A stretch of 64,000 nt of DNA, from positions 96,001-160,000 of IMG/VR virus record IMGVR_UViG_3300048113_001121; one strand, given 5' to 3'. The stretch is from a virus. Every line of letters starts with the position of its first letter. Positions within the stretch are counted from its first letter, which is position 1. The notes under the pieces were generated by a model that saw only the letters and a program-made list of their open reading frames with translations, did no database searches and had not been told where the DNA came from. Of the stretch, positions 56,570 through 59,707 are shown in pieces. The position numbers and the translations under genes were made by a program.

Positions 56570-58948
56570 TTAAGCTATATCAAATTTTTGTAATTCTTCA
56601 ATTGAGTGTTCTCTAGCTCTTCTCTTAGGACTTCCTGAATTAACATCAGCAAAATATAATGTAGACTCTTTAGGGTTACTAAACTCAGGTACACCTTTAC
56701 TAATTAAGAATTTTACAGCAACTTCGGCAGCTGTTTTATCATCTAACATCTTATCAGGGTCACTAACGATATCAATACCAACTTTATTTCCATATTTTTG
56801 ATAATTAGCTTTACCCGTTAATTGGTTATAACCTCTACCAACGTATTTTGAACCATCATTTTTATTATTATTACCAATTCTACCATTATATACTAAATTA
56901 AAAAACTTATCATAGTCTCTCTTTAAATCATTTAATTCTGAATCAGACATCTTTCTAGTTTTTGAAAATATTTTATTAATTCTACGATTAGATGTATTAT
57001 GATAACCTCTTTCTTTTTTATTAATAAAATGAGTTTCTTTACCTATTACCGCTAACATACCAATTTGTGCGACTGGGTCTGTAATACCGTTCTCAATCAT
57101 AGTATCAATTAATCTTTGTATTCCTTTAGATGCTTTACCTGAGTACGTATGAGTTATCTTACCATCTAATGTAGTAAACTCCTTACTTGAATATGTATAT
57201 TTTTCTATATCCTTATCTTCTATATTTTCATTTTTTAATTTATTATACATTAAATCTTTAGTTCCTGTAGAAAAAATCCCGTTTTCCTCTAATTTGTTGT
57301 CTCTCTTAAATTTATTTAACGCTCTTTCTGTTTCGGGTCCGAATAACCCATCGACACCATACACCGGTAATTCATAACCTAATAAAGATAATCCAATCTG
57401 AAATGACTCAACATCTTGTTTAAATCTCATATTTTTACGGTCACTTCTTTCGATGTCACCTTCAATATTGTTAATATTAACTAATAATTGATTACTATCA
57501 GCATCGACTAATTCAGCCTTGTCTGCTTGTTCATTTAATCCTTTTGATTCATTTATTTTTTCTTTAAGTTTTCTTACGAACTCTTTTTGAATCATCTTAA
57601 CAAACTTAACATATGGTGAATCACCTCTATCTTTACTATACTTGTACTTACCTTCAGGTTTTCTCTTACCTCTTCCGAAGTAATTTAACGCAGATATGTT
57701 TGTAATACATTTGTGTCCACCTGAGTTAGCTTGAATCATTTCCCATGCCGGTACACCTAACTTATCTAATATAGCCCACTCATCTTCAGTTAACTTAGTA
57801 GATGGTTTGTCCATAATATCTTTTAATTTTTCCATATAGTCATCACCCCCATCCATTGAACGAACCTTATCACCATAAAAGGCTTCTAAATCCGCATTAG
57901 TGAAACCAACTGACTCATCTCCAAATTGTTTATTACCTTCTGATATCCATTTGATAGTAGATAAAGGAATTATCTTTTCTCTTAATTGACTCTCCCATTT
58001 ACTTAATACTTCTTGAGCTATATCACCTAAGTTAACACCTTTCAATTCTCTCTCACCTTTAAATGGGTTACATGACGCTTGTACTAACCCCATTGGCCAA
58101 GCGATTACTATAAAGTCAGCTTCAGGATTATTTTTAAATGGAGTATAACGGTCATAAGAACCTGGTTTAAACATTGAACCTCCTCCGTATTGTACTATAA
58201 TTCCGTCATCAACATAAACTTTATCACTATCTTTTTGTTTCTGTACATAATCTTTTTGATTTAAAGCCATCTCTTCAGGTAACGCATACCCCTTTTCAGC
58301 AGCTAATCTATTAATGTTTTGAAATATGTTTAATAGTGATGGTTGAGATGTCATTACTAAATCTTCCATAAAACCTGGTTTATTCTTATAAGCTAACATA
58401 AGTTTGTTAGTTGCTAAACCTAAGGCCATTTTATTTTTCTGTAATGACTTATCTTTTTGTAATTTAAATACAAAATTCATTATATCTTGTGGTTCTAACC
58501 CATACTTAGCAAAATCTGCAGAATCGACTGTAGATATTAATCTAATATCATCGGCAGTAAAGATATCACTTGGTGACATTATTTGAGATAAAGTCTCAAC
58601 ATTTGAACGTGACGACCTGAATGATGTTGATGTGTCGCCTTCCACACCTGTTTGACTATCATGATGGTCTGTATGTACAACAAACATCGGCTTTCCATGT
58701 GCGAAATCAACTAAAACCGGCATCGTATCACCTTTAGCATCTTGTTTCTTTACCGCAAATTCCTTATCACCGTATTGTATTATTTCAGAATCAACAACTT
58801 TAATTCCATTATTCTCTAAATAATTTTTCATAGCTAAGGCAGTCGTAACACCGTCTAAATCTTGATGAAAATATATTTTAGCTTTCTCATATCTCTTAGA
58901 TAAATCGTTGATATTTCTTAATCCTGATTCTTTAATTAATTTTTTCAT
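56570..58948 (-). CDS. Fusion protein: DHH/DHHA1 phosphoesterase, PG-binding domain and GH19-like lysozyme
   Basis: HQDLDG, VDF, TDHH and SGGH; VDGLFGPETERALNKFK; KYVGRGYNQLTGKANYQKYG. Confidence 0.75.
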   Translation of the reverse strand: MKKLIKESGLRNINDLSKRYEKAKIYFHQDLDGVTTALAMKNYLENNGIKVVDSEIIQYGDKEFAVKKQDAKGDTMPVLVDFAHGKPMFVVHTDHHDSQTGVEGDTSTSFRSSRSNVETLSQIMSPSDIFTADDIRLISTVDSADFAKYGLEPQDIMNFVFKLQKDKSLQKNKMALGLATNKLMLAYKNKPGFMEDLVMTSQPSLLNIFQNINRLAAEKGYALPEEMALNQKDYVQKQKDSDKVYVDDGIIVQYGGGSMFKPGSYDRYTPFKNNPEADFIVIAWPMGLVQASCNPFKGERELKGVNLGDIAQEVLSKWESQLREKIIPLSTIKWISEGNKQFGDESVGFTNADLEAFYGDKVRSMDGGDDYMEKLKDIMDKPSTKLTEDEWAILDKLGVPAWEMIQANSGGHKCITNISALNYFGRGKRKPEGKYKYSKDRGDSPYVKFVKMIQKEFVRKLKEKINESKGLNEQADKAELVDADSNQLLVNINNIEGDIERSDRKNMRFKQDVESFQIGLSLLGYELPVYGVDGLFGPETERALNKFKRDNKLEENGIFSTGTKDLMYNKLKNENIEDKDIEKYTYSSKEFTTLDGKITHTYSGKASKGIQRLIDTMIENGITDPVAQIGMLAVIGKETHFINKKERGYHNTSNRRINKIFSKTRKMSDSELNDLKRDYDKFFNLVYNGRIGNNNKNDGSKYVGRGYNQLTGKANYQKYGNKVGIDIVSDPDKMLDDKTAAEVAVKFLISKGVPEFSNPKESTLYFADVNSGSPKRRAREHSIEELQKFDIA

Positions 58949-59514
58949 GATATAAACATATTTTTTTCTTTTGTTCTTCTATTCTTAAGACCATCATTCG
59001 AGGACTTATATGATAAAATACTTTCTGCCGCTTTTTTATTTTGACCAGATTTAACATATTGTATAAATCTTGACATTCTAACTGAATCACATCCAGTATT
59101 AAAAACTAATGATATTAACGAATCAAATTGTCCTTGAGTTAACATATACGTTTTTAATCCTTTATCTTTCCATTCCCCTAAAAATCTTCTAACGCAGTCG
59201 GCAGCCTCCGAAGCATCTTTATAAAGTAACTCTAACGCAGTTTTTTTATCTATCACTAAACCACGTTTTACATCACTACCAGTGTGTCCATAACCGATAG
59301 TTAAAACTCCACTTGTGTCTTTATAAGCCTTTAATACTGGCGCCTTTATGTTACCAATTGGTTTTTTGGGGTCACCTTCTTCAAATTTAATATGGTCCCA
59401 AAAGTTTTGACTGGCCTTCATTATCGTACCATCTTTTTTGTCAGAGTCACTTTCAATTAAATACATTTTACGTATTTGAGACTCTTCCGATTCATTTATA
59501 AATAACTTTGACAT
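58945..59514 (-). CDS. Phage lysozyme (GH24)
   Basis: KFEEG...AYKDTSGVLTIGYGHT, QGQFDSLISLVFNTG and GLKNRRTKE motifs. Confidence 0.88.
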   Translation of the reverse strand: MSKLFINESEESQIRKMYLIESDSDKKDGTIMKASQNFWDHIKFEEGDPKKPIGNIKAPVLKAYKDTSGVLTIGYGHTGSDVKRGLVIDKKTALELLYKDASEAADCVRRFLGEWKDKGLKTYMLTQGQFDSLISLVFNTGCDSVRMSRFIQYVKSGQNKKAAESILSYKSSNDGLKNRRTKEKNMFIS

Positions 59515-59707
59515 AAAAACTTTTATTAATAAATATCTATAATAACAAAAAACCCCTCACTTTGTAGGGGTTTCACTCATTAATGATATTGAACATGCGA
59601 TGATATTATCAAACCACACTTTTTTAGGGTTACTTAGACTTCCTTTTTTAAATGTTTTTACATGACCATCAGTTGTTACTATAGTGATTGAGTCGTGGTT
59701 CTTAATA

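Follow-up and report, generated by a model that had tools for sequence, protein, structure and literature searches.

The internal proteins IPI, IPII and IPIII and the protein Alt of bacteriophage T4 are packaged in the phage head, matured by a protease and injected (PMC3012670, PMC5694885). They carry a short N-terminal propeptide that ends in (I/L)xE and depend on the gp21-type prohead protease; the related prohead proteases all cleave after Glu (PMC5694885), and the otherwise diverse T-even internal proteins have only their targeting sequence in common (PMC3012670). Polyvalent proteins combine unrelated conflict-type domains, e.g., a peptidoglycan hydrolase and domains acting in the cytoplasm, and are predicted to be delivered with the DNA (Iyer et al., 2017, PMC5512222). 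Furthermore, DHH-type enzymes of jumbo phages have been suggested to counter nucleotide signals (Iyer et al., 2021, PMC7824862). Here we describe a gene at positions 56570-58948 of a 64,000-nt stretch (hereafter the window; positions 96,001 to 160,000 of the IMG/VR virus record IMGVR_UViG_3300048113_001121, which is 198.8 kb long and estimated to be 66% complete). It is almost certainly a single genuine gene, the product of which unites an intact DHH/DHHA1 enzyme with a peptidoglycan (PG)-binding GH19 lysin. The explanation that accounts for the whole, namely that a large marine phage with a T4-type head uses this product as a cargo protein made up of two enzymes, has in our view an even chance of being correct. 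Each component has known counterparts, namely DHH/DHHA1 enzymes, PG_binding_1 + GH19 lysins, polyvalent proteins and the T4 internal proteins that bear targeting sequences.

On the plus strand the region contains stops throughout and the coding strand is therefore the minus strand (Table 1). The original prediction had asked for a check on a frameshift or an assembly fusion, and this check revealed no artefact. Apart from the fact that the window belongs to a metagenome-derived virus record, we found no support for two separate genes having been joined artificially. A cluster of 90 sequences has the identical 792-aa protein as its representative, the same three domains are found at 65-84% identity in homologues of 793-820 aa, and uninterrupted single open reading frames (ORFs) of 792 and 820 aa are present in independent IMG/VR contigs (L006, L044 and L048). 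Overall, the same fusion is encountered in independent assemblies, from independent samples, with identities ranging from 65 to 98%. Because homologous single ORFs recur in this way, we reject the artefact, which has next to no chance of being the explanation.

The N-terminal module is, as judged from its model, a divergent DHH/DHHA1 phosphoesterase with an intact predicted active site. All DHH-family motifs that had been noticed in the N-terminal part are indeed present (H28-Q-D30-L-D32-G33, V80-D81-F82, T93-D94-H95-H96 and S409-G410-G411-H412) and invariant in 58 relatives that share 28-83% identity. The invariant residues of this alignment (H28, D30, D32, G33, D81, D94, H95, H96, D142, R267, Y268, N294, K333, G410, G411, H412 and I415) include all metal- and phosphate-binding motifs of the superfamily (DxD, D, DHH, D, GGH). 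The 792-aa protein does not reach the Pfam threshold for DHH (18.6 bits for residues 25-105 vs. a cut-off of 28.1); 41 of the 58 relatives match Pfam DHH at E<=1e-3, and the highest score among relatives scanned one by one is 27.9 bits. The clade was placed by its fold and motifs and not by a hidden Markov model. A sequence search of the PDB with the single protein yielded only GH19 and PG-binding matches and nothing for the N-terminal domain, for which the family profile reached an E of about 0.5 at best, so that a comparison of structures was needed.

The AlphaFold2 (AF2) model of the module is of high quality (predicted local distance difference test, pLDDT, 90.8; predicted template modelling score 0.89). 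The Foldseek search that had been proposed to verify the domain boundaries returned only DHH/DHHA1 proteins (DhhP, RecJ, GdpP and TmPDE) at a probability of 1.0, and the modelled fold is beyond doubt. The best PDB match found by VIA-align is PggH (7d62; Z 17.5, 275 aligned residues, root-mean-square deviation 4.6), followed by the 3'-phosphoadenosine 5'-phosphate (pAp) phosphatase 8a8k (Z 16.8), TmPDE (14.0) and the Bacteroides Nrn (13.2); RecJ-type enzymes rank below these (Z about 12), and NrN bound to SAM-AMP (SAM, S-adenosylmethionine) also matches, at a lower rank (Z 11.2). The DHHA1 lobe aligns to PggH, TmPDE and NrnA. According to the model, the module is thus of the NrnA/PggH/pAp-phosphatase structural type: it shares the two-lobe fold and the motifs with NrnA/PggH/TmPDE/GdpP-type enzymes and the archaeal pAp phosphatase (7d62, 8a8k, 5o4z, 3w5w and 5xsi; Z 13-17.5), whereas sequence similarity to these enzymes is essentially nil. 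It is also about 150 aa larger than NrnA, due to the helical insert at residues 153-240 and an insert in the DHHA1 lobe, and, in contrast to this group, the phage family is restricted to phages, possesses an N-terminal leader and is frequently fused to other enzymes.

The C-terminal part represents the modular endolysin architecture of phages infecting Gram-negative bacteria, i.e., PG_binding_1 followed by GH19. Both domains, which had been recognized from the sequence, score above their Pfam cut-offs (36.3 bits vs. 23 for PG_binding_1, residues 511-567; 26.6 bits vs. 25.5 for GH19, residues 696-749). This part matches the endolysin group phrog_181 of PHROGs (1.8e-31), and, among proteins of solved structure, the GH19 endolysin 4ok7 is nearest to it in sequence (E 1.8e-14, residues 610-759). 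E638 aligns with the first Glu of the GHE motif of 4ok7, the catalytic Glu; the second Glu, E646, is conserved in relatives and lies one column off that of 4ok7 in the HMMER alignment. Residues ~500-792 thus share the architecture of modular endolysins, but here the module forms the C-terminal third of a protein that starts with a 470-aa phosphoesterase, and in relatives its place is taken by M23, LAS-like or non-lytic modules.

The leader of the window's protein, MKKLIKE, is a putative propeptide ending in (I/L)xE in a genome that also encodes a gp21-type protease, as is the case for the T4 internal proteins. In the family the leader measures 6-24 aa and ends directly before a conserved SG[IL]RNI. 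Among the 81 representatives with this anchor, the boundary is formed by [IL]xE in 54, by [VFMYT]xE in nine and by another xE in nine, while eight begin with M-SG and one lacks Glu at the boundary. Leaders resembling the T4 capsid-targeting sequence (CTS) were found in 7 of 98 representatives with a strict pattern and in 20 with a loose one (e.g., MIKKYQNFLNE, MAKTYKEYLAE and MIKKFNSFVNE), compared with 0 and 2 of 294 control ORFs from the window's genome. The targeting sequences in the T4 genome are MKTYQEFIAE/A in IPII and IPIII and MKTFKEF...ITE/A in IPI (a slash marks the cleaved or putatively cleaved bond). Some DHH-family leaders are therefore close to MKTYQEFIAE; that of the window is shorter and unlike it.

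The three (I/L)xE sites that had been pointed out in the linker are confirmed as L461-K-E463, I465-N-E467 and L471-N-E473. Standalone forms of the DHH protein terminate in ...KINESKS or ...KIDGSKSE, and nearly all fused forms carry a hydrophobic-x-E 3-10 residues past this end, regardless of the module that is appended (LNE/Q, LNE/S, INE/G, LDE/S, LKE/S, ITE/N, VKE/D, IQE, VQE and others). A single junction type clearly departs from this pattern, and two types have Thr at P3. When the full-length protein was modelled with AF2 (pLDDT 85.9), values below 50 were confined to residues 1-7, residues 472-479 and a GH19 loop (690-699), and the candidate sites IKE7/S and LNE473/Q would therefore lie in exposed stretches; INE467 sits within the terminal helix. 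In the 1079-aa forms (P0003, L020) the linker KEKINESKGLNEQ occurs twice, one copy following the DHH module and the other separating the M23/PG-binding cassette from the PG-binding/GH19 cassette, and it seems to be the joint where cassettes are added.

The host of the gene is a large marine phage with a T4-type head. Its genome encodes a T4 gp21-type prohead protease (Peptidase_S77, 83.5 bits; genome 55707-56429, minus strand), a T4-type portal (Portal_T4, 265 bits) and a gp23-type major capsid protein (Gp23, 209 bits). The latter contains I-N-E60/A just before its conserved core, at the position of T4 gp23 maturation, as would be expected if the prohead protease is specific for (I/L)xE. The head machinery, this capsid site, the predicted disorder, the leader and junction sites and the CTS-like leaders together lend substantial indirect support to a packaged polyprotein, and we consider it as probable as a coin toss, or slightly more so, that, as these sequence features suggest, the fusion is packaged in the head and cut at leader and linker.

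The separate GH24 lysozyme reported directly upstream was recovered, its gene overlapping that of the fusion (ATGA) and being translationally coupled to it. An intrinsic-terminator-like hairpin closes the unit further upstream, and the GH24 gene and the DHH fusion therefore form a transcription unit of their own. The promoter-like motif TATTTATT in front of this unit is also present at -19 of the gp21-like prohead protease and at -22 of a head-core-like gene; it is absent before the NUDIX, methylase and ThyA-like genes. Genome-wide, the motif TATTTAT[AT] is located 12-40 nt upstream of 40 out of 238 ORFs, and early [IL]xE leaders are found in 20 of these 40 compared with 53 of the 198 others (Fisher p=0.005). 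TATTTAT[AT] is probably a late-type promoter of the phage. It corresponds to the T4 late box in reverse and also precedes a 1325-aa ORF (genome 172835-176812, minus strand). The T4 late promoter itself, TATAAATA, has 31 sites in the window against 19.6 expected; it was considered and rejected, as none of them lies upstream of the operon on the coding strand.

The gene in the upstream slot varies among relatives and is a GH24 lysozyme or one of several unrelated proteins of ~105, 125-137, 267-277 or 350-393 aa. Nearly all of these start with a similar leader of 20-32 aa, of the type ...R-I-D-E-S-E-K-x-R-I-L-x-L-H-E..., of the type ...L-T-E-S-E-L-K... or, in the window, ...F-I-N-E-S-E-E.... The same GH24 cargo occurs behind two leader types and the same leader before different cargo. 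This variation is seen in loci L018, L021, L026, L034, L040, L054 and L060. The slot gene is usually translationally coupled to the DHH gene. Diverse cargo behind a common leader matches the T-even internal proteins, which share only their targeting sequence (PMC3012670). In the T4 genome, the gene e adjoins nudE and has ipIII and ipII immediately downstream, and the DHH locus likewise is a variable locus next to an e-type lysozyme and a NUDIX gene. The presumed cargo, i.e., the DHH fusion, differs from the T4 internal proteins in being a large enzyme with a second, internal candidate site, at which another enzyme would be released. Pfam further identifies an N6/N4 DNA methylase and a NUDIX hydrolase among the neighbours of the fusion gene, as well as a DUF192 gene, which is encoded on the opposite strand.

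Table 1. Features of the locus and modules appended to the DHH protein in its relatives. Positions refer to the window unless another contig is given.
Feature	Position	Strand	Remarks
Whole ORF (leader, DHH/DHHA1, linker, PG_binding_1, GH19)	56570..58948	minus	792 aa + stop
Leader, residues 1-7 (MKKLIKE), ending in I-K-E	58928..58948	minus	Candidate prohead-protease site and putative targeting tag; AF2 pLDDT <50
Residues 8-473: DHH lobe ~20-150, helical insert 153-240, DHHA1 lobe 244-420, C-terminal helix 445-472	57530..58927	minus	AF2 model
Junction, residues 461-474 (LKEKINESKGLNEQ)	57527..57568	minus	Three [IL]xE sites; LNE473/Q best cleavage candidate
Predicted disordered junction stretch, residues 472-479	57512-57535	minus	AF2 model
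PG_binding_1 peptidoglycan-binding domain, residues 511-567	57248..57418	minus	Pfam 36.3 bits; three-helix bundle in AF2 model
GH19 muramidase/endolysin-type domain, residues ~605-792	56573..57136	minus	Pfam GH19, PHROG 181, 4ok7
GH24 lysozyme, domain residues 61-183	58945..59514	minus	Leader ~22-32 aa (MSKLFINESEES...LIES); ATGA overlap, translationally coupled
Promoter-like motif TATTTATT	59528..59535	minus	21 nt upstream of GH24 start codon
Intrinsic-terminator-like hairpin (CCCCT...AGGGG + T run)	59546..59572	minus	Sequence read by eye
APS-kinase-like gene	1575-2012	plus	Pfam 57 bits
Sulfotransferase-like gene (weak match)	G000:C1 34445-35476	minus	18.8 bits, below cut-off
gp23-type major capsid protein	G000:C1 52031-53773	minus	Outside the window
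Family module: M23 + PG_binding_1			751-aa form
Family module: M23, PG_binding_1, PG_binding_1, GH19			1079-aa form (protein P0003, locus L020)
Family module: hedgehog/LAS-like			
Family modules: unannotated			732-, 726- and 752-aa types
Distant-member module: S-AdoMet-lyase/DUF3293			P0183, P0185, P0192
Distant-member module: SET			P0127, loci L054-L058
Distant-member module: GNAT			P0129
Distant-member module: N-terminal DUF5661			P0173

An exhaustive HMMER search with residues 1-480 (E<=1e-3) delimits a closed family of 382 clusters at 50% identity. In IMG/VR, a DHH-family relative is encoded by more than 568 stretches. The family appears, from its distribution in sequence collections, to be confined to phages. 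The 29 nearest clusters in the ESM Atlas are all viral, and in BFVD close structural similarity is limited to a pair of 'uncharacterized' proteins from uncultured phages. Among 185,579 species genomes no relative of the single protein was found, which is weak evidence for an absence from cells since this search detects close relatives only. Megablast of the gene against 50,697 phage records gave no match.

The best 80 IMG/VR loci contain 71 complete ORFs, ~37 of which are standalone DHH forms (466-496 aa), the remainder possessing varied C-terminal modules (Table 1); in the 1079-aa relatives, DHH, M23, two PG_binding_1 and GH19 domains are united in one polypeptide. The gene order is fixed: the methylase gene is followed by a variable gene (often GH24) and the DHH gene, which may or may not bear a cassette, and then by DUF192, on the opposite strand, and NUDIX. 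In a 270-kb relative (locus L034, 4957-7602), a PEP (phosphoenolpyruvate)-carboxykinase-like gene (490 aa) and a gene for a secreted 352-aa protein with fasciclin-like repeats, both named by eye, are situated between the methylase and the DHH locus. In some contigs (e.g., L003, L007 and L009) the flanking genes are 97-100% identical to those of the window while the cassette is different, and the exchange is therefore recent and at the level of strains. Comparison of these sequences indicates that the DHH module is a conserved core gene of the phage clade at a fixed position, with a cassette that is swapped between near-identical strains.

This distribution bears on the question whether the protein is simply a lysis enzyme, i.e., an unprocessed and unpackaged, full-length modular endolysin that acts in the infected cell, its DHH domain aiding lysis or its timing by, for example, destroying cyclic di-AMP (c-di-AMP). 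This nucleotide controls turgor and wall homeostasis in many bacteria. The C-terminal 290 aa do have the architecture of modular endolysins of Gram-negative phages (with the matches to PHROG 181 and 4ok7), the gene adjoins a GH24 lysozyme gene, and the top Foldseek matches include the c-di-AMP/pApA enzymes DhhP and GdpP. However, roughly every second family member is a standalone protein, and SAM lyase, SET or GNAT domains replace the lysin in others, so that the DHH module does not need a lysin. Such a role also leaves the variable hydrophobic-x-E leader, the T4 CTS-like leaders and the conserved junction sites unexplained, and we consider it quite unlikely. The occurrence of appended enzymes that act in the cytoplasm (SAM lyase/DUF3293, SET and GNAT) beside wall hydrolases fits a carrier of injected effectors.

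For the substrate of the phosphoesterase, the structural comparison suggests three candidates: the enzyme may be a small-nucleotide phosphodiesterase (best Z scores), a pAp phosphatase or a RecJ-like nuclease. That it targets immune nucleotides is a plausible idea that we advance tentatively and rate clearly below even. An anti-signalling role is favoured because distant members fuse the DHH module to a SAM-lyase-family domain. In type III-B CorA CRISPR systems SAM-AMP is degraded interchangeably by a DHH-type NrN phosphodiesterase or by a SAM-AMP lyase, and it has been proposed that such a lyase of a phage serves as an anti-CRISPR (PMC12255297). A PDB sequence search with the DHH-SAM-lyase relative P0183 gave no match and did not link its lyase domain to a solved SAM-AMP lyase.

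A metabolic function is unlikely as well, but slightly less so than a role in lysis. The enzyme would then be a phage nanoRNase or pAp phosphatase that completes the salvage of nucleotides from degraded host nucleic acid or removes the pAp produced by sulfation in the phage, and the lysin would have become attached by chance, at a hot spot of recombination. Among the structural matches the pAp phosphatase 8a8k ranks second (Z 16.8), with NrnA-type nanoRNases next, and some neighbours are of the nucleotide-metabolism type (NUDIX, ThyA-like). Furthermore, the adenosine 5'-phosphosulfate (APS)-kinase-like gene and the weakly matching sulfotransferase-like gene (Table 1) hint at a 3'-phosphoadenosine 5'-phosphosulfate (PAPS)/sulfation pathway of the phage that would make pAp, which keeps the role of pAp phosphatase alive. 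However, the repeated independent fusions to varied effectors with a conserved site at the joint, as well as the leaders and the promoter-like motif shared with head genes, are not accounted for. Since a metabolic enzyme could equally be packaged, this explanation competes mainly on the substrate.

The third candidate, a RecJ-like exonuclease acting on single-stranded DNA or RNA, seems very unlikely. Archaeal and bacterial RecJ and GAN align over ~300-320 residues (Z 12-13), i.e., over more than the NrnA-type enzymes do, and they likewise carry insertions between the lobes. The best Z scores are, however, to enzymes with small substrates (PggH 17.5, pAp phosphatase 16.8, TmPDE 14.0), and a Pfam scan of the protein detected no oligonucleotide/oligosaccharide-binding (OB) fold or other nucleic-acid-binding domain.

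If the fusion is indeed a two-enzyme cargo protein, the following course of events can be envisaged. The GH24-DHH operon would be made late, along with the head genes, and the leader would bring the fusion protein into the prohead, where the gp21-type protease would cut after IKE7 and LNE473, and possibly also after INE467, releasing a phosphoesterase of ~466 aa and a wall hydrolase of ~320 aa. Both enzymes would exit the virion at infection. The phosphoesterase would most likely hydrolyse small nucleotides in the host cytoplasm, immune second messengers being the most attractive substrate and nanoRNA or pAp the alternatives, whereas the GH19 module would cut peptidoglycan. An unpackaged pool could instead serve lysis. 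Packaging, cleavage and substrate are in this scheme all predictions.

Several observations weigh against this scheme. The internal proteins of T4-type virions are believed to enter the cytoplasm together with the DNA, which leaves a packaged muramidase without an obvious route to the wall. MKKLIKE is unlike a T4 capsid-targeting sequence and counts 7 aa where those of T4 have 10-19, and the conservation of E7 may be structural. The motif [IL]xE is common in the AT-rich proteome of the phage: the whole protein contains 10, against 7.4 expected, and is thus not enriched, and the three clustered sites in the linker are by themselves only modestly unusual. Because of this, the signal resides in the clustering and in the conservation across junction types and not in the count. 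Genome-wide, [IL]xE is present in the first ~19 residues of 69 out of 216 ORFs (32%), vs. 18% expected from interior rates, an enrichment that N-terminal composition may inflate. The fusion gene is located outside the structural module, amid methylase, NUDIX and ThyA-like genes. A tblastn search of the 50,697 phage records retrieved the N-terminal domain only from two uncultured huge phages, and no cultured relative. With respect to the substrate, the fact that RecJ-type enzymes match too (Z about 12) counts against a small nucleotide.

The broadest reading would be that the widespread family as a whole is a head-packaged and injected enzyme that destroys immune messengers (cyclic oligoadenylates, the dinucleotides of cyclic oligonucleotide-based antiphage signalling (CBASS), or SAM-AMP) before the host responds, and that also acts as a carrier of cassettes (wall hydrolases, SAM lyase, SET and GNAT), each set off by a prohead-protease site. 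We regard this as doubtful, but as a better prospect than any of the rival functions discussed above.

With its unrelated DHH/DHHA1, PG_binding_1 and GH19 domains on one phage polypeptide, the protein is of polyvalent-type make-up, combining, like the polyvalent proteins, a peptidoglycan hydrolase with a domain that acts in the cytoplasm. The survey of these proteins contains no occurrence of DHH (PMC5512222). In contrast to the polyvalent proteins, Pfam found no MuF, portal or zincin-type autopeptidase domain here and processing would require the prohead protease. The virion-gene context of polyvalent proteins is also lacking, the neighbours being methylase, GH24, DUF192 and NUDIX genes, and only the promoter-like motif links the gene to head genes. 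The DHH phosphodiesterases of jumbo phages (PMC7824862) likewise are DHH-superfamily enzymes of large phages with the same proposed counter-signalling role, but in the available text of that paper they are ordinary proteins of ~300 aa, for which a leader, head targeting or a fusion to a wall hydrolase is not described. None of the papers retrieved by full-text search describes a DHH-lysin fusion, going by title and abstract. At that level we also found no description of this phage-only DHH clade, of its leader or of its role as the unvarying N-terminal half to which exchangeable cassettes are attached, with a conserved Glu site where they join.

In the most conservative reading, this study reveals an uncharacterised, structurally distinct clade of DHH/DHHA1 proteins with an intact predicted active site, together with a strain-level hot spot for the exchange of cell-wall hydrolase cassettes. 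If the protein is indeed packaged, cleaved and injected, a large and abundant family, with its 382 clusters at 50% identity and its presence on hundreds of virus contigs from the ocean, would join the capsid-cargo proteins and be added to the few known proteins that are preloaded in the capsid and disarm the host on entry. Immunity based on nucleotide signals would thus be countered by an enzyme already at work before the expression of phage genes begins. Furthermore, it would constitute a natural modular polyprotein cargo system in T4-type heads. This would imply that such heads can mature multi-enzyme polyproteins at internal sites, which bears on the engineering of T4 capsid cargo.

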